A stretch of 59,169 bases of DNA, filler included, from Sphacelaria rigidula (taxonomy: Eukaryota), in the NCBI GenBank assembly GCA_964200075.2. It is 6 parts of 6 records of this genome, joined end to end, with 100 filler letters (N's around TTAATTAATTAA, not from the genome) between each part and the next. Parts side by side here need not be neighbours in the genome. Positions count along the whole stretch, not along the records: positions 49,392 to 59,169 come from CAXNAA020007786.1; 5 more parts are not named here. One strand, given 5' to 3'. Below the pieces are notes generated by a model that saw nothing but the letters and a program-made list of their open reading frames with translations, made no database searches and was not told the origin of the DNA. Position 1 is the first letter of the stretch. Every line of letters begins with the position of its first letter. A program made the position numbers and the translations under genes. Below are positions 11,751 to 57,322 of the stretch, piece after piece.

Positions 11751-12312
11751 CAAGGGTGGTACATGCATTACCTGGACAAAGTGCGGCCTTGGGACACCCC
11801 GAATTGGCGCCTGTCAACGAAAACGCGTTCTGCGTACGCGAGGAGCACACGGGACTGTCAGCCCTCCTAAACATCCGATTATCGTTGTATACACTCAAAT
11901 AAAGTAATGTGTCAACCATGAACATTTGTAGCCCAACGCCGGTTAGCTCTGCTGCTGCAAATCGCCGCTGCAGTGACATATTCATGCATCCTCTCGTCCC
12001 ACCAGGTAAATGAGTCAAGCTGGTATAGTGGGGGTCTGAATGAAAGATCTGTCTGATGCTACGGGGGAAAAAAAAAGAGAAGCAGCAAATCTTTCACACG
12101 TTCTATTCCTTTCAAATGACAACGCACTCATTACCTACCGTAACTGTATCTGGTATATTCTATACAGTTATCGTACGTGATGACAACCGAACAAATCTTT
12201 CATGGTACTCCGTGGGAAGTCACGCCGAAGTCTTCAACTTTTTCCACACGTCTGTTTCGCCTTTCCTGTTTCGCCTCCGGAACTGCATGCCCCCTGCGTA
12301 CACAAAATACAG

Positions 12313-15300
12313 GCCTGTGGACGAGACCCGCTGTCACTGACACGGTAGGATGGCGGTATGTACCGGAGCAACTCACGACAGGTGATGAGGCACCAGAGGC
12401 AGACTTGCACGCGCAGGATAATAGCCCCGCCGCTTACAATCTACGGAGAATACACAAGGGCAGCAACAGCGGCAACCCCGACGACACTGAATTGAGAGCC
12501 GAGCCACTAGGAACACCGCCAAAACACGCTGCCAATACGCCTACTGCGGAGGCTCTTCTCCAATTTCGACGGTTACATATAGACGCGCATGTACACGTTC
12601 AAGCATTTGAGGGGAAGTGGTCCGCCTGCTCGTCTGACTGTGTTCGCACGAGACCGGTCATGTGTACAACACTGGATCTACAGGTGGTACCCAGTGAATT
12701 ATGCGGGGACGAGCTGCCGCGTTCCTCGGAGTCGTGTTACACCGACCAGTGCACTGTGCCGCCCCCTCGAGCGGACGGTAACGGTGGACATGGTGGTGAG
12801 TCCTCAGGAAAAAGCGAAGAAAATACGAAAATGGAGGAAGACCATAGGAAGAAGAGATCAGGGAGTAGGGGAGTCGGAGGCGAGGAGGGTGTGGGAATTG
12901 GAAACGGAAAAGCCGGTGAAGGAGGTGAAGCAAAGGTGGATCTTGGGCGAAAAAAGAAGGGGCAACCGACGCCTTACGAAGGAGCGATGTCTACGCGGAC
13001 GGCACATGAGTATGCGCCGTCGGGGGTGTTGTCACATGAACAAGAAGAGAAGGGCGCTAGCGTGTCCGTTGCGTCTGGTGACGAAGAAACAGCTGGGAAA
13101 AAGGAGAGAGGAGTCGCGGAAGAGCAACCGAGCGGTGGTGTCGGTGTCGGCGGAGGGGCTGCGATGGAACATGACTATAGGTCAGCAGTTGCAGGATCGG
13201 CATCACCACCATCATCAACGACAACAACAGCAGCAGGAGCAGCAGCGGCAGCAGAGACCAAAGAGACGACGCCCCGAACGACAGGTGGTCGCTCTGCAAC
13301 AAACGGGTTCCCGGAGCAGTCGAGGACCGGTCCGCAGAAAGGAGCACCGGATGACGGTGCACCGATGTCGACAAGGGGAAAGGCGCCGGGCCCAAAGGAA
13401 GGACAAGGAGAAGACAAACGGACACCTGGTGTACCAGACGGCCGCTCTGCCGGGCGCCGCAGCGGTGCCAGTTGGAGGAATGCCGGCAGCGATGCTGGGA
13501 ATGTGGTAGCGCCGTCCGAGCGAAGCGGTGCTGATGACGGCCGAGGGGAATCAAAGGAAGACGTTCGTTCCGGCGAGGAGAAGGTATGATGAGGGAAACA
13601 AATGTGAATGCGCTGCTGGCTTGCACTTCTGATATTCTGGGGATGTGGAGGGGGAGAGAGGGGGCGGGTGGTGTACTAATAATATTGCGTGCCGTAGTGA
13701 TGATACATTGGAGAGAGGGCGGGGGGCGGGAGGGGTGAAAAAGGAAAATGAGTGTACGCTCAACTCTTTGGGAACCCGTTGACAATTTTTGTTATCGTGA
13801 ATGGGCATCTTGACTTGAAAATGAGTGGAAATGATGCCGATTCACACTAGTATCGTCAGTGGGTTTCAAAAGGGTTTAACAGGATGTGTAGTTTATACGG
13901 AGCGTCAAGTACATCCCGGTCATGGAACATGGAACTTTGTAACATGTTTCGTAAGTTGCAGTACAGTACAGTCCAGTATAACAAACTCTTGGGTTGTCTC
14001 CATAACCTCGAATTCTAGATGATGACTTGATGGCGGACGGAAAATGTTCTTGTACAGGAGTGAAGAAGCGGTATCAGATCGTTCACTCGCGCACTTCAAC
14101 ACACGCAAGGTGTTGGTGGGGACGTACTCCCGGTGGTAAAAATGAACAGTCGAGTCTCGACCCTTTCTCCCCCGACGTGTTGACAGTAGGAGCGTGCCTA
14201 CCTGCACAACAAACGCTCCGCGTCTAAATGCACACACTTCCACATTCGTCTTTTCCAAACACAAGAAGTGTCTGCTTTTGTCGACGTCGTCACGTTCCGT
14301 AACGTTGTGGCCGCCCCAAACCTTCTGTTTTATTTGTTTTTATGTTTTTGCTTTTAATTCACTCCCCTGAGCAGACATACACGCCCGCCCCCCACTCACC
14401 CACTCACCCCCACCCTTCCCTTGGCTTTGCTTTTTGTGCACCAGTACAACAAATCGCAAGTTCGGGGCGAAAATGTCAACCTTTCAGCGAGGTCCCGGAA
14501 CCGACCGCAGACGATGCAACGAATCGGGGGAGGACCGGGATCGGCCGGAGAACGACGGCGACGGTCGTGGACCGTTATCATGATCGGCTCCGCGGCGGTG
14601 GGATCGTTCCTCGTCGTGGTGTTCATCGCGGTGTCGCAGTATCGAAAAGTGAGAGCGAGAGGTCTGAAAAAGAAAAGAAAAATGTGAAACAGTTACAATT
14701 CGGGGGGCGGGGGGGGGGGGGGGGGATAAGAATTGCAATCATGTTTGTTGGTCCGGAAATGAGGTTGGGAGATATTGGTTGAGGCAGTGAAGAAGTACCG
14801 TGATTTCACCACCACCCCTTCCCCTTCCCCACAAGACTGATTTGAATGCTTTGTTTCGCTTCTCTCGTAAGTAGCCCTCATCCTGTCATGCGGGGAGGGG
14901 GGTGGTGATCCACTGGTCGAATCGCACCATTCTCGGACCAATGTCTTCATTTTTTTCCCCACGAACGCTGATCACACGTTGACATTGAAAGCAAAAGTCG
15001 GGCCTCAGCAACGGTGCATTTTTCACGGACAAGAAGGAGGACGTTACCTTTCCTTCTCGGCATGCTTTGTGTCAGGGTTTGGGATGGGGGGGTTTTGTCT
15101 AGCATGATTATTTTCTTGCTGTAAGTCAACACGTCGGCTGTATGATGAAAGGTCACATGTGTACTACTGTGCTGTACTATACGAGAAGGTGGCCGCGGTT
15201 GAAGTGGTCATGCGGCAATGCCCAGCCGCTCGCTTACACTGGCCATTATCCAAGGATATACCCAAGTTTGAGGCTATATCCAGATGTACATATAATTTGT

Positions 15301-26176: not shown

Positions 26177-29100
26177 TCACTTGATGTTCATCAACGCGTT
26201 CCTGTGGTATCGAAAACTGTCCGCAGGCGAAGGCTTTGTCAGCACGTTAGCATGCTGTTCAGCTGACGAAACGTACTCCACACGAATGACGTGCTCGGAC
26301 ACCAACTCCCTCAAGGATGGTGCCATGTATTTATGTGATTGCTTTCGTGGGAGGTTCGCGGATTATTAGCGAACTGAATGGCTCCCTGGTTATTCTCATA
26401 GAGCTACACTGTCACCGGGATGTATAACACCTCCTGCGGCGGTCGCATGAAGTGGAGCACCGTCTTCCGAAAAGTGCATCCTTCACCACATCTCTCATGG
26501 CTACGTACGCGCCCTGCGTAATAGAAAGCGTTACGTTCTTCTGAGTCCTGGAAAAAAAATCTGATAACAGCTAGACAAAAAAATTCCGTACTGCACCTCC
26601 CGACACAGAACGTCGATCGTCGAATTTCGCGTAATCTGCATCGGCATACGCCAACAACACCTCGCTCGAAACCCTGACATACGTCATGCCCATTTCTAAA
26701 GTACTGTTGAGGTGCTCGAATATCCGCAACACTTTTCGCTAGTCCTCAGGAGTCGGGTTCTCGTTGTGCCTCACCGGCGATGGTCAGACGAGTGTTCGAG
26801 AGTCACATCAACGATCCCACCCCTTCTCGGTATCTTCCTTTGAGGTCCTCTCCTTCTTCAACCTTGCTGAAGGTCGGGAATACACGGCTCGTGACGTTTC
26901 TGCTGCAAAAGTCGTGTGTGCTGCCTAGTACGTCCCAGGGTCGACTCAACCGGATCCGGTTGCTTCGCGGTGTCCGCGCTGCCGACGGATGACGTTCCTG
27001 ACGACTGGTGGGTGGATGTGGATGATGACGATATAGTCAGAATCAGACGACACAGGCGATGCTGGCGACTGTCCTGCGGTGATGCCGTCGCCGTCGCCGG
27101 GCATAGGTTTTGGCCCTCCATCTCCATCAAGATCATCCTTCTCCGTCACTGTTCCGCCCGGAAATTTCCCCCCCTCATGGAGGTCCGACTCATCAGAATC
27201 AGAGTCCTCGACATCGCCCTCCCTGCTCTCTGTATACCTTGAGAATTCCCCTCTCCACATGGAGAACGGAACCGCTGGTGTTCTTGTGTTGGTACACATA
27301 GGCATAGGCTTTCACAGCCCCTTGGCCATTGAGCACCCCCTGTAGTCCATCAGAACCCCCATCAAAGTCACCCCCTACTGTTTCGCGGTCTCCCGCAACA
27401 AACTCTCGTGCAGGTGGCCATGGGACTGGTGGAAAAGATTGATGTTCACCTGGTCGGGGTTGATGAGCATCTTGCCAGGAGCAGAACAGCACTGGCGGAT
27501 TCTGCGGGGTTGGACTGTACAACGATTGATGAATCAGATGCACTGGAGCCACGTGCGTCACGACCACAGCATCAAATCTCCCAGCTTTCCTATGAAATAT
27601 ATCCTCGCCACGGGGCAATAAATGGCGGTCCCCTCCCTGCTGAGTCGAACCGGGTAGTCACGCTCAATCACTACACTCTGCGAGGAAACTAGATTCGCGT
27701 CTAGATCGGGTACATGCGCAATTCTACTAATAGTAAAAGTCAGTTGCCCGTCAGGTCCAGCCGTCGATACCAGTAATTTCCCGTAGCCTAGCATGGGTAC
27801 CTGATGACTGTTGGCGACTGCGGCAGATGAATTTATGCAAGTTTCGTACTCGCGCATGAGCCCTTCGGGAACTCTCCCCTTCCATCCCCGCCTCAGACGC
27901 CTCATTATTTCAAGCCCTGGCACAGAAGAAAGATGGCAACGGAAGAGACCGGCGGCAACTATTTCAACGGCGGAAGGCCACAGAGGGATCCGCCAGCATA
28001 CGTCATGCGTGCACCAAAAATGTCACCGCGGTGCGGTCGGATTAGTATTGTCCAGTGAGGAGACGCAACGAGTCAAGTGACAGCCGAAATTTGCACCTGC
28101 GTGTCTGAAGTATATACAAACAAAAATCGGCACCACCTATCTATATTCTATATCCTGAGTCCCGTGCTGCACTTGGGCACATTTTACACGCGTCTGAAAA
28201 AAACGCCTCGGGCTAACAGTTTTGCGTGAAAGCTGTAAAAGCTCAACCTTCGTGTCGTTCGAAAACAGCACCTCGAAATCCACACTTTTCCATCGCCAAT
28301 TCCAAAAGGGTTAAATCGCTCGAGGAAGTAACACAGCACGTTGCTGCACTATCGACTATCCAGACTTCCCTCCCCCCAATCGTTCACCTCAGGGCAATCA
28401 TCCCAACCCATCGACACTGCCGACGTGAACTCGCCGTCTTTGCATTCTTTCGCCATGAACCCACCGTCAACGGAATCCCGAAATCCGTCAGGCGAAATCA
28501 TTGCAGAAGTACTATGTATACTATTCCCGTGATCCTTCACCACCACGTACCTCACAAATACGCTCGGGGCATCTACTTCGGCAACACCCAGGTTTACCGC
28601 CCCCTAAATATGTCACATTCGTCTTTCTTCTTCTCTCCGGACTCTTGTGTACCAGGCAAATCGTTACCCGTAGACATACCATCAATGTTTTTTTTTTCAT
28701 ATTTTGTTTCTGTCGCGGGTTTCTGCGACTTACTTTAACCTCCCTTACCGTTACCCGCGGGGCTGCACCCTTATTTCCCGCGAAGAGAGCACGGTTGTGA
28801 TCCGTGCGCTTTGAACGGCCAGCATTCTTCAGTGATGAATACTTGTCCCTATTTTGGCCCGCCCGTCTTGTCGGGCAACAAAACGAGCGCCATTCGTAGA
28901 TTATCTCTTACAGTTTTGTATTCTGCGGGGAGATATGAAAGAAACGCATCCACAACTTTTTCATTGGCGATCTCCGTATCAAGTGAACGATGTTTTGTCT
29001 GTGTCTTCTGGTTTTAACCCTCACAGTATCCAAAGCTGTTAAACTCGGCCAAAACATCAAAACTTGGCTCCCGAGGTTGTCGGAGAGAAATGCTCGTCCA

Positions 29101-49291: not shown

Positions 49292-49391
49292 NNNNNNNNN
49301 NNNNNNNNNNNNNNNNNNNNNNNNNNNNNNNNNNNTTAATTAATTAANNNNNNNNNNNNNNNNNNNNNNNNNNNNNNNNNNNNNNNNNNNN
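49292..49391. other. Artificial contig-joining linker
   Basis: N44-TTAATTAATTAA-N44. Confidence 0.97.
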
Positions 49392-51542
49392 AATCCTCCG
49401 GGTTCTCATCCTCAATCAAAAGCACCATCCTCAACATAGATGATTGGCTGTTTGAAGAAAACTTGCGGTATTGATGAGTGTACCACTTCCGCTTGAATGC
49501 GAGTGCAACATTTTAATCTCTTATCGAATATTTTCAAGTTTAAATCGCTCAACGCATAGGCATGGTCGAATACAATAAAGAGACGACCCATCTGTCCGAA
49601 CATGAAGATCTACCCCTGTTTGTACCACCGTGCCTCGGAAGAACTGCATTAGCATCCCTGTTGTCGACCGTTTATCAAGAAGAATAAACCACACCAGTAC
49701 GAACTCGCAAGCTTGGATACTTCCAGTGCAGCGTTCTTCACGTATAGTATGGTACGGTAGAGTGTATTTCTCGAATGTCGTGATGACTGGAGTAAAAACA
49801 GTGTTTACTGTGCATTCATTTGTGATTTTACTTTGTCCCAAGAGTGTTACACACGTATCTGTTTGTGTTGTGTTGAGAATTTCCCGCCCCCCCTTCCTTC
49901 CGTTGAATCAGTTTCGATCGAACAAATTTGGGTAGATCTATCACATGAACGATACCTGCTCCCACCTGACCATCACAGACCAGCAATTTCCCGCGACCAA
50001 GCACCCGGTGCACGAGGCTTTTTATTACCCATGATGCAGCATTTCGGCACGCGAAAACAGCGCATGCACAGAGTCGATTTGTACTACAAGCATTCGATCG
50101 GGTATACCTTGGACAGAATCATTCGTATTCCTCCCCGACGTTATGATCCAGTCTTGATGTCCGATCCTGGAGCGTAAATGTACACGATCAAGTGTAGCAA
50201 GAGGTATACAGGCGAGGTACTACGGTCGCCAGCAGTATAGCAACACGGCTGCGTATCTCTCCTCGTACAGCGCCGGCGCCCTGCATACACTAGGGAGGCT
50301 TTGCGGGAGGTTGGCTGCCGTCCCATTCGAACGCGGCAGTGCTCGTCGAAGTCGACACTCTCTAGTCAACACTAGTATGGATCGTGTCACGTGGGCTGTA
50401 ATAGAAAGCCTCATGCACCGGGTGCGTTGTCGGGGGAAGTTGTAGGCCTGTCGTGGCCAGTTGAGACCAGATATCTTTTATATAATCAGTGTACCCATAT
50501 TTTCCTACTCTCATATATCACACATATGCTGAAACCACCATCGAATTAGATCCGACACATAATGCCGCACACCAACTCACGGAACACATACCTAAACCAC
50601 TGAATGAAGTGGGGTACTGATGCCTGGGAAAAACGCTCATACAAAATGACATGTCATAATCCCAGATTTTCGGCACGCAAAAAGGCGTGTGCCGCCCCAG
50701 CAGATATGCACTGCAACCACTACACAGGGTGTACCTTAAATAACAGAATGATCTCTTATTCGTATTTCCCCTGCACGTCATGATCCAATCTCCATATCTA
50801 TTTCCTTCGTATCCAGGCAGATCCTGGAGCGGAAGTATAATCGATTAGGCTGGTCACAAGACGAAAATGGTGTGACTTGTTGATTACATCCGATTATTTT
50901 CTACCGTACAAGTTGTTCGATGACGACAACGGCCATGGTTTACGTCATGCCCGACGCATCATCCGGCGCGCCCGTAGGCGACGGTTTAGTCCGGAGAAAC
51001 GACAACGTCTCGTCATACGCCATACAACGCATCATGTGCACACTCGGGGACTACTGCGACGGGGTTCGGAGAGAGTTCATGACGATCCCTCATCGAACAC
51101 ATTTCGTCGGTTATGATCTCACAAGTTGCACCGTGACGGCAATTCCAGTATCTTACGTTACACAAGCTACCATCTACACTAGCGACCACCACCCGTGCAG
51201 TAAAAGTATGTCTTCCTATTCACACATATGTACACTTGGAGAACTCTCTACCGAAAGGCAGGGCAACACCATCCCGAAACATATTCCCGACCAAATCTCT
51301 TCAGGTTGGGGCCAACATGCAACACCGAATTCTCGTCTCCCGGACGTGACGTGTACCGTCACCCAAGCCCGCCGGTCAGGGACAAACATCTACCCTCGCC
51401 CATGAAGCACTAGAACCCGGGGAAACGTACAGGGGAGCCTCCAGAGCAATCAAACCGTGAGCGCTTGCCGAAGGGGTCGACCTTCCTAGGGAAACCTACT
51501 GCCGTACTACTGCTCGAAGTGAAGAGAGTTATTCGGGACAGT

Positions 51543-54021
51543 TCATGACCCCGTGTTCTTGGTCGCTGGCGACGGCATTGGCGTCGGACTCGGCGCCGAG
51601 GTTGGTGCTGGCGTAGGATCCGCGTTGAAAATAAGCACCTGAACAGCACAAATGCTCGGGTTACTGCAGATAACGGCGAAACTCTCCGGCGGGTTCCACA
51701 AGGGGGCGAAAGTGCCAAATCTGACCGGGGTGCGACCGGCGACAACGCCGTTGACGACCGCGACCACGAAGGGATTCGTTTCGGCAACCCGCAAAGCCCG
51801 GCGGAAGATCGTCACGTCAACGATCTGCACCCTCACCTGCGATCCGTGGACAACAACAGCGTTCGGATCAATGGCAAGTCGTGAGCGGTCGGGAAGCAGT
51901 CGGGGTTTGTATCATCTTCCCTCCTCACCACTCCGTCGGGCGTGCTCGACACAGGGGTCACCCCATCATAGTTCATACAAGGCAGTTCGACAGCTACGCC
52001 TATCCCCAATCGCCAACTATGCGCAGGAACAAGCACAGCCCCTCACCGTGTCCTGCTCTTCGGGAACGGGGTCATGTTGTGCGTCTTGACATCAAGATTA
52101 TTACAAAAGAAGTCGACACCGCGGCGTACCATGCGACGCACCACGTCCACGACGAGGACATCGGCGACAGGAATACCAGACGCTGTGGACACCTCCCCGC
52201 CAAGATGGCCTCGACCCATGCCCGAAGGCTACAGTATGTGCTTCGGTGGAGCGGGACACGACATCGAAGTATCTCACTTGTGTGGTGAGCCCTAGGTGGG
52301 CAATACGTTTCTCACATTAATTCCTCCTCCCAGCTGAAGACCGCGGGACGCCTCACTCTCCGCCGACATGGCGGCTCGCTCTCCTTCGATCGTTTCCGTC
52401 AGTCTCCGATTCGAGAACACCACGAATATGATCTGTCCAACCACCGTTCCATTCACGTCGACAAGGACGAGAACAATTCTCCGGCCGACTACCAGATCTA
52501 TGATCTGAATAATTCCGCCGCCAATCGCGAGGCCGGGAATTCCTACCGTGCGAATGGATATGCGCAAGGACAACAGGGTCGACGCAGATCAAGCGAGGTT
52601 TTTTCTTCACCGGGGCAGATGTGTGAAACGAGCACGCGCACCGACTTGGCGGTGCCTCAACTACTGCACCCCTGACCGGCTGAGCAGAAGGAAGTCGGCT
52701 GACACGGAGGCATCTCGCGGGAGGAATCTCACCCAGGCCGAGTTGACGATCGAGGGTGACGTTGCACAGTTTTCTCTGGCACCCCTGCGAATTTCACGCT
52801 GGTCTTCACAACACGTGGCAACACCATGGGACCCTTAATTCGGCACTCATCTCACCAGGGATCGGAAAGATGATGGCCAGCACTGGGGCTGGCGTTGGCT
52901 GCGGTGTCGCAGTCGGCGCCGGCGTCGCTGTCGGCGCCACCGTAGCGGTTGGTGCCGGTGTGGCGGTCGGGGTCGCTGTCGGTGCCGGAGTAAACTTCCG
53001 GCTTCCTGCAAGCGAAATGAACGTAGTACCCATGCACGAAGCGGTACCACCATGGCGCAAGGTCGAAGTGGGTGCAACGAACGCGGGTCAGACGACCCCA
53101 GGGATTTCGGTGTGATTCTACAGCGGCAGGGATGGTACAGGTTAGTCGACCTACCGCTGCTTTTCGGCATCTTCGACACTGTCGGGCGCTCGTCTCGTCT
53201 CTACACGCGCCGCTACGGCATGGCTCACAGGATATTGACCCTGTACGCGGTGCACTCACCACGGAATCTCCGCCCTCTGCGCCCGCGACGACGTCTCCTG
53301 CCTCCTCTTCTCCTCCTCCTCCTGCCCCTACCCCTCCTGCGGCGTCTTCTTTTGAGGCTCCTGGGATACTCCTCACCTGGAGGTGCGGTGTAACAACCAA
53401 GGCGGAGCCGGGTGACCTCAGCGAGGGACACAGTACGGGTGGCCCTCGTCAGCGGCAGCACCCACATTGGGTAGGTTTTTTGACCACGCCAGGTGCAGGG
53501 CTGCCCCACCGATACCCGTCTACAAGGGCAACGACTAGATTTTCCATCGAAACTCCTCACCCTCCCGAGCGCTCACCTTGCCCTGATGCGCGTGTGACGG
53601 AGCCTCCGGCAACAGACGTCGGAGCCAAGTCTGTCGGTCTCCCTTCTTCCCGCAGTGCCACCGCCTCAGCCATTGGTCCTGACGCGAAAGTTCGAAAACA
53701 CGGTGGTTCGGGCGATGAGACCCCCTCGGCCATGCGGCGGCAGAACCACACGACATACCCGAAGACCACAACGAACGCGCCAGAGGAGTCAACGCCGCAC
53801 AGTTCTACACCAAACAAGCGCCGGGATCAACGTCCAAGATCTGTCGTAGACATCCGACTCATGTGTACCGTTTCCGATCCGCCAACGTCAGCAGTAGGCG
53901 GAAGGCCGTGATATTCGCAACAAAAGGTGTGCCACCTACCTGCTGCAGCTGAACGTGCGAAGAGAGCCAAGCAGAAGATGATCCCAATCACGCATCCGAA
54001 CAGCTTCTTCGTCGACAACAT
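51543..54021 (-). CDS. 289-aa secreted protein: signal peptide, poly-Arg/Gly tract, Pro/Thr stalk, apparently circularly permuted C2-like domain (complete)
   Basis: Five GT-AG exons 54021-53940, 53376-53260, 53005-52856, 52542-52316, 51836-51543. Intron phases 1,1,1,0 are all compatible (870 nt). MLSTKKLFGCVIGIIFCLALFARSAAA-GEEYPRSLKRRRRRRGRGRRRRRRGGRRRRRGRRGRRFR-GSRKFTPAPTATP...PVLAIIFPIP-GIPGLAIGGGIIQIIDLVVGRRIVLVLVDVNGTVVGQIIFVVFSNRRL...RGLQLGGGIN-VRVQIVDV...ETNPFVVAVVNGVVAGRTPVRFGTFAPLWNPPESFAV...VQVLIFNADPTPAPT...GS*. Confidence 0.82.
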
Positions 54022-54695
54022 CCTGTCCACCCGGTGGATCCCCTACGAGACGATCGCTCCCTGTGGGTCAATCAATACCAACAGGGTGGGTAAACTCTGG
54101 GGTTGAAGTCAACAGCACGGTCCTTGCAGGTACAAACTAAACTGAAAGGTGTAAAAAATCGTATATCCCGGTGTGTTCAAGCTACGATGCGGTGGAGAAA
54201 GCACGCGGTACTCCCACGCATCACAGGCTCAACACTCACTATTGATCTGCAAAACTCGACCTATACATCGGGTGGGGGTCAGATCCTCCGCCACCTACTC
54301 CGAGATGACTCGAACGGGTCGACATATGACGCCAGTACCGCTCCCGCACGTTCCGAGCTCAATTCTCAGGCCAAGCACCTTTTAAGGGGAGGTCTCCATT
54401 GATTCCGCAAAGACACAGTACCTGTCCTGTTCCGCCGCGCGACAAGTCACACCTGATACCCCTCACCACTTTCTTCGGAAAATGGACACGTGAACATAAC
54501 TCCTTCGTAGACTCAAACGAAACAGGATATGTGTCTTCTTTCGCGTCAACAGACTCTCAACTGAAGGAATGGCGTTCATGTAGTCCATGCCATGAGCGGA
54601 CAGAGGCGGTCGCCAAGCAAAAACCTGCGAAGACCGGGGACTTGGCTGCGCGTGAAGTCACACTAAAAATCACTCCTGTCGAGGATGCAGAACAT

Positions 54696-54738
<43 letters not shown>
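54696..54738. repeat. (CA)n microsatellite
   Basis: About 19 uninterrupted CA units from 54701. Confidence 0.97.
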
Positions 54739-54739
<1 letters not shown>

Positions 54740-55469
54740 CGCGTGGCAGGACAGCACTAACTCTGCACTCTCACCGTCACGAGTATCCCCAATAGTGCTG
54801 TAGTCCAGGGGTAAATCGAACGACCGGGCGATGGACACTTGTAATGGGGATGGCGAGGGAGGGGGGGAGGGGGGGGGAAGGGCGGCTACGACAACAAACG
54901 ATAGCGTGACGGCCCGTGTACCATTCTCCTGCGAGCACCTGTCCTCTCACCTGCCGAACGACTTCCGCCTGAAGAAACCATTGGTACATGTTCCCCATCC
55001 CCCCTTTACACCCCACGGATCAAAGGTACATGTTTCCCACAGCTTCATGCGGCCTAAATCATACGCAGATTATATCCTAGTTCTGCCCTAATTGTGCATC
55101 AGCGCCGAGATTGGAACGATCGAGGACCTGGCAGTCTCATACCATCCACAGCGCACGTACAACGAGTTCCCGGTAAAATGTTCGCCTCAGGTCCCGATTT
55201 GAGCCCCCAAAGCGCATCTCCTTTCTTCTAGGACACATCATTCACATGTTTCCCGCTCCCGACCAAATGCGGTGCATGTATTGTATGCAGTCGGACGCCG
55301 TAGCGGAACTCGGGCTACAATACGACGCTGAAAAAGCCAAAATTACAGCGTTCAACTTCGCATCTACGTTCATTGCAGAGAGCGCACAGGTCAATCCGGG
55401 TGGGCCCGAGCATCACGGTCTGTCTAGCAAGCACGGAGACACTGTGGGCGCTGCACCCTGCTTGGGTGT

Positions 55470-56748
55470 TGTAATGCATGAGCGGACCGCGTGCTCAGGG
55501 GATCGCATGGTTGTTCGAAACACCTCAGGATCGGCCTTTTTCAAAACAAATCGGCTTAGTCCCTGCAAGGACCACACCTCTGACGCTAACCCCAACACTG
55601 ACCGTAACCCCAGTACTATTCCTAACCCTAACCACAAGGATGTTCAAATTCCGATGCGATCACCTACGGTCCTCTCATGCATTACAGGCATTCCGGACCT
55701 TGGGAGCCGTCACAGAACAAACCAGGCACTGGGGGAATCCTAGAAATCGCCGGGACCAATTTGTATTCGAAACAAAAAAGGAAGCGTGCACACATGCACA
55801 CTGGCCCAAAAAAACTCGCAAATCGCAGGTGAAAAGAGCAAAACGTGAAACCACTGCACACCATACGCACACTATGTTACGGTGTAGTAGTGCACCATGC
55901 CGACATTGCAGTCGTCTCAGCGAACCCTACATCCATACACAGTGAATATATTATATACACTACAATAGCGAAGGGGAGCCCGTTTTTGCCCCGAGCTTGA
56001 CTGATGACTACGACCCGTATTTCGCCCAGTATCGTCAAACACCAAATTTCGTTCCGAGCCCTGCACATCAGTATTTCGGCTGTCGTGAGTCTCTCGACGA
56101 CGCCGTCTTGTTTCATGCCATGGACTGTCTTATCCAAACCAACACATCGTCAGGTTGCCGTGAACAAGCCAAACTATGATATTGAAGCGAGCACCATTGA
56201 GACTACATACCTCATACGCATTCAGTAGTTCGCAGCTGAAATACGAGATCGTGTGTGATGCTTGAGAGGACCGCGTGCGTAGAGGACCGCATCGGAATTT
56301 GAATATCCCAATGGTTAGGGTTGGGGTTAGAGTTAGGGTTAGTGGTGGGGTTAGTGGTGGGGTTAGGGTCAGGGGCGTGGTAACTGCAGGGACTGGCCCG
56401 ATTTATTTTGAAAAACGTTGATCCTGAGGTATTTTGAACAACGGCGCGGTCCTCTAAGCACGCGGTCCTCTTACGCATTACAATGCCGACCAAAACGTAC
56501 CTGCGCTGCAGAAAATTCGAGCGCTGACCGTCCAACCATTGTAATGCGTGAGAGGACCGCGTGCTTCGAGGACCGCATCGGAATTTGAACACCCCTAGGG
56601 TTTGGGTTAGGGTTAGGGTTGGTGTTGGGGTTAGGGTCAGGGGCGTGGTACCTGCAGGGACTGGCCCCATTGGTTTTGAAAAACGTCGATCCTGAGGTGT
56701 TTTGAACTACGGCACGGTCGTCTAGGCACGCGGTTCTCTCACGCATTA
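55470..56748. mobile_element. Cluster of three ~210-230-nt TIR elements carrying telomere-like repeats
   Basis: Copies at 55470-55686 (+), 56254-56482 (-) and 56540-56748 (-). TIR TGTAATGC.TGAG.GGACCG. Internal degenerate (CCCTAA/TTAGGG)n. Confidence 0.85.
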
Positions 56749-56863: not shown

Positions 56864-57322
56864 GACTCACTTTCATGGCAACGAATCCCGATTTTTACAA
56901 ATAGGAGGATTTCAGCCCGTCTACCAGTGATTTTCTCCCGTGGATTAATTTTTCGGACCCCAGTCCGTTGGGCAATGTTTTTCGGCTAGCTGTGAGCAAA
57001 CCAGATCAATTCTCCGATATCCAGGGCGTTGACTTTCGATATATCACCGCTCTGCTGAACTCGGGACACCCCCGCATCTCCCCCGATTTTTTTGAAAAAT
57101 CGGGGAGATGCGGGATTGCCCCGATTTGGGCCGAAATGTGATAAACCAAAAGTCAACGTCCATAGAATCGGAGAAATGATATGGTTTGCTCACAGCTACC
57201 TAAAAAAATATTGTCCAATGGACTGGGGTCTGAAAAATCAATCCATGGGAAAAAATCGCCTGTAGATGGGCTGAAATCCTTATATTTGTAAAAATCGGGA
57301 CTCGTTGCCATAAAAGTGGGTC
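56864..57322. repeat. ~460-nt palindrome (foldback/MITE-like)
   Basis: Centre CCCGCATCTCCCCCGATTTTT-TTG-AAAAATCGGGGAGATGCGGG at about 57092. Arms pair out to ATGGCAACGA / TCGTTGCCAT. A half copy lies at 2464-2680. Confidence 0.9.

Follow-up and report, generated by a model that had tools for sequence, protein, structure and literature searches.

A gene of the brown alga Sphacelaria rigidula with an arginine-rich exon behind a signal-peptide-like N-terminus

Gene organization and transcripts

The window analysed here is a stretch of 59,169 nucleotides (nt), filler included, from the brown alga Sphacelaria rigidula. Its last part carries, on the minus strand, a gene of six exons whose internal splice sites, as placed by contig joints, are all GT/AG; joined by their coordinates, the spliced exons amount to 972 nt, that is, 323 codons with a single terminal stop. 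The third exon encodes most of a 35-residue tract containing 24 Arg and 2 Lys, to which attention had been drawn in a preliminary description made from the sequence alone. This Arg exon is transcribed, spliced into the mRNA and read in the sole open frame. The other two frames of the spliced mRNA hold seven stops each, which bears out the earlier statement that only the Arg frame is compatible with the neighbouring exons; the alternative frame through the exon, then named as a way in which the proposal might fail, finds no support.

The transcript evidence comes from Logan contigs of four public runs (X1, X2, X5 and X8), mapped over positions 51000-54400. None of the eight listed runs is recorded as RNA, and "RNA-like" and "DNA-like" refer here to the behaviour of the contigs. 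X5 is DNA-like, with long contigs at depths of 24-33 that run across every intron and with zero GT..AG joints. In X1, X2 and X8, which are RNA-like, contigs lie on the exons and the introns stand at depth 0-7; the parts skipped at their joints end in CT..AC on the plus strand, equivalent to GT..AG on the minus strand. The figures for X1 and X8 are nearly identical and may represent one data set filed twice, and X1 and X2 belong to the same study, leaving about two independent RNA data sets behind what is given below as three of three RNA-like runs. Joints were found for all five introns, four of them in three of the three RNA-like runs and one in two of the three, with none in X5. The exon ends given are the contig joints after the stated cut shifts, and all exons are on the minus strand.

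The coding part of exon 1 (53940..54021) specifies the signal-peptide-like residues 1-27 and ends one base into codon 28. Its start codon, ATG at 54021-54019, has an A at -3 and an in-frame TAG 21 nt upstream, and the 5' untranslated region (UTR) reaches a few tens of bases upstream of the coding part. Its donor is 53940|GT, and in X1, X2 and X8 the contigs continue from there at 53678. The preliminary description had proposed a junction of 53940 with 53376; this was not seen, exon 1 joining 53678 and 53577 joining 53376 in all three RNA-like runs. Between them lies an exon that it had missed, exon 2 (53577..53678; 102 nt, phase 1-1), encoding residues 28-61. The joints of this exon (53677->53939 and 53371->53572, CT..AC on the plus strand) are present in three of three RNA-like runs and absent from X5, and the frame is kept. 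The tract had been described as following directly after the signal peptide; exon 2 puts it 42 residues past the predicted cleavage site.

Exon 3, the Arg exon (53260..53376; 117 nt, phase 1-1), encodes eight residues up to an R-S-L-K motif and then most of the tract. The whole tract, residues 70-104, spans 52995..53353 on the minus strand and is split by intron 3 (53259-53006) into 53353-53260 and 53005-52995. Both its presence with 24 Arg and 2 Lys and its location almost entirely in a phase 1-1 exon of its own were as previously described, the latter now seen in spliced contigs. One contig of 306 letters, found with zero differences in X1, X2 and X8, comprises exon 2, the whole Arg exon and 91 letters of exon 4. 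Exon 4 (52856..53005; 150 nt, phase 1-1) provides the last four residues of the tract, a Pro/Thr/Ala stalk and the start of a conserved apolar Gly/Pro-rich stretch. Its joints, 53004->53259 and 52541->52855, occur in three of three RNA-like runs, and the former confirms the junction 53260/53005 that had been predicted. Exon 5 (52316..52542; 227 nt) encodes the first half of a domain, with the apolar Gly/Pro-rich stretch, predicted strands and an N-R-R-L-T-E-T loop. The coding part of exon 6 (51543..51836) covers C2-like strands 1-5 with a cysteine pair, then a Pro/Thr/Ser tail, and ends with the stop TGA at 51545-51543; its joint, 51831->52311 (cut +5), was found in X2 and X8, two of the three RNA-like runs. 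The 3' UTR extends to at least ~51113, an RNA contig spanning 51113-51594.

No joint skipping either the Arg exon or exon 2 was found among the contig joints; contigs show presence, so that a rare skipped isoform may exist, but the skipping of the Arg exon that had been raised earlier is unsupported, the exon being included in the contigs. Exons 2, 3 and 4 each have phase 1-1, matching the phase 1 at the end of the signal-peptide exon, a symmetric layout through which modules can be gained or lost without a frameshift.

Three further joints were set aside as likely transcripts of near-identical paralogues or alignment variants: 52543->52858 (TA..CA, one letter between; three RNA-like runs), 51816->52311 (15 letters between; X8 only) and 52999->53180 (GG..AC, skipping 180, with a shorter side of 25 letters; one contig of X5 only). 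The last of these would delete the start of the Pro/Thr exon (exon 4) together with its acceptor, and may reflect a paralogue or a structural variant.

Other features of the contigs hint at a multi-copy family whose other members, near-identical and expressed more strongly, would have the outer exons in common, including the signal-peptide exon, but not the Arg exon at 95% likeness. Of 106 X1 contigs, 61 are only 95-99% alike. Summed depth in the RNA-like runs, which is no copy number, lies far above that of the gene's own contigs at exon 1 with the 5' UTR (53940-54060), in the Pro/Thr exon (52856-52940) and in the last exon (51684-51800), while over the Arg exon it equals what the gene's own contig alone gives. 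At 54044 (a 1-nt deletion) and at 51750 (a synonymous G>A) the variant form is deeper than the reference form, in the DNA-like run too. No second copy of any exon is present within the 59-kb window.

Parts of the predicted protein

As judged from its sequence, the 323-residue product is built like a secretory modular protein. From the N-terminus, a signal-peptide-like segment is followed by a 42-residue region leading to R-S-L-K, the +26 Arg/Gly tract, the Pro/Thr/Ala stalk, a divergent beta domain resembling half of a C2 domain, and the Pro/Thr/Ser tail. The C2-like domain and the RXL-type motif ahead of the tract are additions to the model first described.

Residues 1-27 contain two Lys, a 16-residue apolar core (residues 7-22) and Ala at both -3 and -1, and look like a cleavable signal peptide. 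Membrane-insertion sums were taken on a Hessa-type scale, and on these the core is the only segment of the protein with a favourable (negative) value, -3.3 kcal/mol. The initial model ran from signal peptide through GEEYPRSL to the tract; its N-terminus remains signal-peptide-like, but exon 2 lies in between, with no effect on the frame. Residues 28-69 are slightly acidic (net -2) and end in R-S-L, with the Lys that opens the tract coming next; R-S-L-K, at residues 67-70, is thus immediately ahead of the Arg run. Such a region matches the layout of an RXL precursor, a signal peptide and then a short region ending in R-x-L, though weakly, the motif being short and occurring four times in the protein. 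Two other assignments were rejected. Plastid bipartite presequences of ochrophytes are expected to have an aromatic residue after the cleavage site, and here Gly follows the Ala-Ala-Ala site. A nuclear RGG protein was discarded on the grounds that the first ATG, preceded by an in-frame stop and with A at -3, opens the predicted signal peptide.

The tract itself has 24 Arg, 2 Lys and 7 Gly among its 35 residues (~69% Arg), a net charge of +26 and zero acidic residues, the Arg run being broken by Gly only. Over residues 62-104 the Arg codons are AGG (9), AGA (7), CGC (4), CGT (3) and CGG (2), a total of 25 made up of the tract's 24 and the Arg of R-S-L-K; AGR and CGY islands both lie within the Arg frame. 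AGG and AGA account for 16 of these 25 codons as against 5 of the 16 Arg codons in the rest of the gene. Tandem Repeats Finder detects a weak period-3 array at 53295-53338, which has 69% matches and covers 44 of the tract's 105 nt. A single, cleanly slipped triplet does not describe the tract, and in this the codon counts and the weakness of the array agree with what had been concluded from the use of five Arg codons. When stop-free windows of 35 residues are compared over the six frames of the 59 kb, no other is as dense in Arg; the runner-up, with 16 Arg, is an off-frame reading of the Pro/Thr exon. The tract has the same sequence in the RNA-like and DNA-like runs, and no length variants are listed. 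Within the tract there are 18 overlapping dibasic pairs.

The expected stalk was found at residues 105-150, which are 80% Pro, Ala, Ser and Thr, with 5 AP and 6 TP dipeptides and no PP; the tail, residues 300-323, reaches 83%. Together the two segments have 7 AP, 8 TP and 2 SP dipeptides and no PP. An 18-nt tandem repeat occupies 52902-52970 in the Pro/Thr exon (Tandem Repeats Finder). Arabinogalactan-protein-like backbones are marked by a signal peptide together with segments in which Pro, Ala, Ser and Thr exceed 50% and AP, TP and SP dipeptides occur; by composition the present protein is of this kind. Its C-terminus lacks an apolar tail and shows no hydrophobic signal of the glycosylphosphatidylinositol (GPI) type.

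The exon 4/5 junction is spanned by the apolar Gly/Pro-rich stretch, residues 141-164 (positions 52470-52580 and 52856-52885). Nowhere is the family better conserved, with 13 consecutive residues identical to those of the relative P0001, discussed below. The stretch contains three Pro, five Gly and one Gln, and its insertion sum is +3.7 to +6.4 kcal/mol as compared with the -3.3 of the N-terminal core. A predicted loop between the two domain halves, N-R-R-L-T-E-T at residues 195-201 (52437-52457, minus strand), is likewise identical in P0001; it fits R-x-L and site-1-protease-type sites and may be an internal processing site.

Among the sequences compared, conservation is confined to residues 151-299. 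The open reading frame of the last exon matches Pfam C2 (PF00168) at E=0.0031 and 18.1 bits, under the cut-off of 22; exon 5 has no match in Pfam. In a phmmer search of 1.84 billion representatives, the last-exon half found P0003 (E=1.1e-13) and P0007 (E=1.3e-9), proteins with nine and four Pfam C2 stretches respectively, and BLASTP aligns the last exon to the C2 repeats of P0003 at 1e-6. A profile built from 47 C2 repeats matches the last exon at positions 4-76 of 133, corresponding to strands 1-5; for positions 77-133 (strands 6-8) no counterpart was detected in exon 5, in native or swapped order; swapping the halves, as a test of circular permutation, brought no gain. The nearest clusters in ESM Atlas are all C2, with a score of 0.81 that is a lead only. 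A profile search of PDB sequences gave no match at E<=10, and the AlphaFold2 model of P0001 has eight strands, but with a mean per-residue confidence (pLDDT) of 47.4 and a predicted template-modelling score (pTM) of 0.31. The likeness to C2 domains consists in the alignment of the last exon to strands 1-5 of genuine repeats. It departs from them in its sub-cut-off score, in the unmatched strands 6-8, in the calcium loops and in an added Cys pair. The calcium-loop aspartates of calcium-dependent C2 domains are absent: Asn takes the place of Asp in the S-D-P-F motif in all four family sequences, and the D-x-D of loop 3 is not kept in the family. The two Cys, six residues apart, are conserved in four of four family sequences and are the only Cys of the mature protein.

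The protein probably belongs to a lineage-restricted, brown-algal family. Of the 20 matches at E<=0.001 in the representative library, only P0001, a partial protein of Sphacelaria rigidula, covers both domain exons, with 69% identity to exon 5 and 60% to exon 6; it has no Pfam family at E<=0.01 and carries a different long low-complexity tail, of Gly/Asn/Pro repeats. P0004 and P0014 are Logan fragments that cover the last exon only. Most of the other matches are long proteins, 13 of which matched the family profile at repeated sites, C2 being confirmed in P0003 and P0007, both of those checked; P0002, an HYR-repeat protein, was rejected as probably matching through its Pro/Thr composition. A comparison of the last exon with longer proteins scored none of 222 candidates. 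With the whole of P0001 as query there were 73 matches, all but P0001 bacterial, archaeal or metagenome-named and of low coverage, which were read as matches to the repeat tail and dismissed; residues 22-186 of P0001 found only P0001 itself among 779 candidates. Metagenome scans with two alignments yielded 599 and 87 pattern matches, none of them confirmed by tblastn.

Elsewhere in the window, a long open frame at 12144-13589 (plus strand) combines a stretch like a thrombospondin type 1 repeat (PF19030, E=3.6e-4, below cut-off) with Gly/Glu/Lys-rich low complexity, and may be an exon of another extracellular protein gene. The open frame at 27558-28022 (minus strand) scores above the cut-off against PF22936 (E=7.3e-7), the beta-barrel domain found in Pol polyproteins of retroelements, which marks it by sequence as a transposable-element remnant. 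Just upstream of the gene is a cluster of direct and inverted repeats (55469-56748 and 56864-57322). Its inverted arms are 165 nt long with 77% complementarity and 119 nt long with 87%, and the direct copies, of 153 nt, are 88% identical; translations of the cluster hold Pro/Asn and Thr/Leu/Pro runs, and one pair of arms has (GGTTAG/GGGTTA)-like units. A (CA)n microsatellite lies near 54680-54710. The window includes 450 N, with runs at ~49340-49390 and ~11050.

Candidate roles of the tract

We tentatively favour the view that the protein is secreted into the matrix and that its polycation binds alginate and sulfated fucans there, perhaps once an RXL-type propeptide has been removed, as in the diatom silaffins. 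Wall-polymer binding, adhesion and release as an antimicrobial peptide had been suggested in the preliminary description, and all three are still putative roles. The protein would enter the endoplasmic reticulum (ER), its signal peptide being cut after Ala-Ala-Ala at residue 27, and the stalk would be O-glycosylated in the manner of arabinogalactan-protein backbones. The tract would end up outside the cell, where its guanidinium groups could bind the carboxylates of alginate and the sulfates of fucose-containing polysaccharides, pinning the protein to the matrix or cross-linking the polymers, and the C2-like domain, presumably stapled by a disulfide and lacking the calcium-binding Asp, might bind a second partner. 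More speculatively, the 42-residue region could be a propeptide of the RXL-domain type, cut at R-S-L(-K) in the Golgi, so that the polycation would become the mature N-terminus only once past the early secretory pathway; the position of R-S-L-K directly before the Arg run is what suggests that the polycation may be unmasked by propeptide removal.

Fucoidan and protamine are reported to self-assemble into particles in vitro (PMC11510590), and the brown-algal matrix is described as dominated by alginates and sulfated fucans (PMC8307928); together these make polyanion binding chemically plausible. In diatoms, which are ochrophytes, many matrix proteins carry an RXL domain, ~30 residues that follow the signal peptide, end in RRL or R-x-L and are removed by an unknown protease, according to the account in PMC5525289, while RSLK is given as a proven cleavage motif of site-1 protease (PMC8310232). 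A much more specific proposal combines all of these elements: the RXL-type propeptide would be cleaved by site-1 protease or an RXL-type protease, the Arg tract thereby exposed would act on alginate and sulfated fucans as an ionic cross-linker or by coacervation, and the glycosylated stalk and calcium-independent C2-like domain would tie the complex to the cell surface, in a plan shared with diatom silaffins. In this full form we regard it as improbable.

Several points weigh against the matrix-binding view. An imperfect repeat of the (AGG)n type forms the core of the tract, and this, with the enrichment of AGG and AGA, implies that repeat expansion contributed to it. The protein contains six R-x-[L/I/V] sites, four of them R-x-L, so that R-S-L-K alone is weak evidence of processing, and the 18 dibasic pairs could turn the tract into a protease substrate rather than a stable module. 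The ionic strength of seawater weakens purely electrostatic binding. C2 domains are typically cytosolic and mostly lipid binders, perforin being a rare secreted case. The Arg exon may be private to this copy, paralogue-like contigs having been found on exons 1, 4 and 6 and none on the Arg exon, though this is a hint only; and P0001 starts inside the Pro/Thr stalk, without an N-terminus, and hence says nothing about the Arg tract.

Some of the same observations are those expected if the tract is a tolerated low-complexity expansion, a purine-rich triplet repeat in a disordered linker exon of a fast-evolving secreted family, translated but with only a spacing role. This we consider unlikely, though it has to be taken seriously. 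The period-3 array, the excess of AGG and AGA and the apparent lack of paralogue-like contigs on the Arg exon (again a hint) would all fit it, as would the 18-nt units of the adjoining Pro/Thr exon, which is repetitive too, and the different tail of P0001, which shows that such tracts come and go in the family. On the other hand, two codon families, AGR and CGY, are both used in the Arg frame; Gly alone interrupts the run, with no acidic residue in 35 although an all-purine tract could equally encode Glu; and the tract is identical in the RNA-like and DNA-like runs, with no length variants listed.

The dibasic pairs and the R-S-L-K just ahead of them could also mean that the tract is a processing region, cut at dibasic and RXL-type sites by Golgi or extracellular subtilases either to separate a propeptide or to free Arg-rich peptides with antimicrobial or membrane-penetrating activity; we find this very doubtful, the least probable of the readings considered. 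Precursors of antimicrobial peptides commonly place an anionic propiece between the signal peptide and the cationic peptide, which counts for this reading, but a preceding region of net -2 would be a poor neutralising propiece for a tract of +26, and a single site would suffice for cleavage. We know of no established protease specificity for brown algae. The removal of RXL propeptides in diatoms (PMC5525289) and the cleavage of RSLK by site-1 protease (PMC8310232) count in favour of such processing. A membrane-anchored topology with the C2-like domain in the cytosol would agree with the usual lipid-binding role of C2 domains, and could take two forms. The N-terminal core might be an uncleaved anchor with the polybasic tract on acidic lipids, as in synaptotagmin-type proteins, where an uncleaved N-terminal span lies directly before a polybasic stretch; here the core is only 16 residues long, with an Ala-x-Ala site (Ala at -3 and -1), and the tract lies 42 residues away from it. 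Alternatively, residues 141-164 might be a type I transmembrane segment, with Arg tract and stalk outside and the C2-like domain inside, forming a wall-to-membrane tether or sensor. Residues 139-162 do exceed the classical Kyte-Doolittle threshold of 1.6, and this stretch is the part of the family best conserved, yet its prolines, glycines and Gln and its positive insertion sum speak against a membrane span, AlphaFold2 (at very low confidence) predicted no helix there, the conserved Cys pair and the Pro/Thr tail would be cytosolic, and the calcium-site Asp is Asn in four of four family members. Such topologies seem to us quite improbable, only slightly less so than a processing region or released peptide.

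If the favoured reading of a secreted polyanion-binding protein is right, a protein with such a +26 module would be a candidate for organising or anchoring the brown-algal matrix or for an adhesive part of it, and tags that bind alginate or fucoidan could naturally be modelled on it. In any case a normally spliced mRNA contains a very long polyarginine run after a signal-peptide-like start, and this run, if translated and secreted, bears on how cells handle polybasic stretches. Should the fuller, silaffin-like proposal hold, the "signal peptide, RXL, polycation" plan would represent an old ochrophyte way of building matrix with protein polycations; should the tract be merely a tolerated repeat, it would be an ordinary low-complexity expansion in an orphan gene family.

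Relationship to known systems

Literature searches for an arginine-rich secreted protein of brown algae found no description of one, and a search on polyarginine and ER translocation found only reviews on cell-penetrating peptides and delivery. The terms "C2 domain" and "arginine" are absent from the main text of a brown-algal genomics preprint, whose supplementary tables may list the family. A review of brown-algal walls presents models with polyanionic polysaccharides, phlorotannins, iodine and a few protein classes, the word "cationic" being absent from its main text (PMC8307928).

The same review reports arabinogalactan-protein-like backbones in brown algae (PMC8307928). The present protein resembles the chimeric arabinogalactan-protein-like wall proteins of these algae in its predicted signal peptide, its Pro/Ala/Ser/Thr segments and its non-contiguous AP, TP and SP dipeptides. 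It differs in having no GPI-type signal, its glycosylation is putative, and partner modules of the polyarginine or C2-like kind are not described for those proteins in the literature consulted.

The likeness to protamines and protamine-like sperm nuclear basic proteins is one of composition only, with ~69% Arg over 35 residues and Arg clusters broken by small residues. Protamines are small stand-alone nuclear proteins that pack DNA and have no signal peptide; here a comparable Arg density is limited to the tract, which is essentially a single exon, and the 323-residue protein also includes a signal-peptide-like start, a Pro/Thr stalk and a beta domain.

Silaffins are rich in Lys and Ser, heavily modified and associated with silica. 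With them and the other RXL biosilica precursors of diatoms (cingulins, silicanin-1) the protein shares ochrophyte origin, a signal peptide (here predicted), a short region up to R-x-L and a low-complexity, often polycationic part (PMC5525289). Unlike them it has an Arg/Gly tract, no silica role and no sequence homology, and their RXL removal is known, whereas here there is a predicted motif only.

The heparin-binding tails of VEGF, semaphorin-3 and PDGF-B retain these proteins on glycans, often beside convertase sites. The proposed principle would be the same, a secreted protein held on sulfated or carboxylated glycans by a basic segment, but those glycosaminoglycan-binding tails are shorter, of mixed Lys and Arg, and C-terminal, while the present tract places 24 Arg near the N-terminus of a protein from an unrelated lineage. 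Polybasic glycan-binding modules and RXL-type precursors are thus already known; the novelty lies in so extreme an Arg content, in the lineage and in the combination with a C2-like domain.

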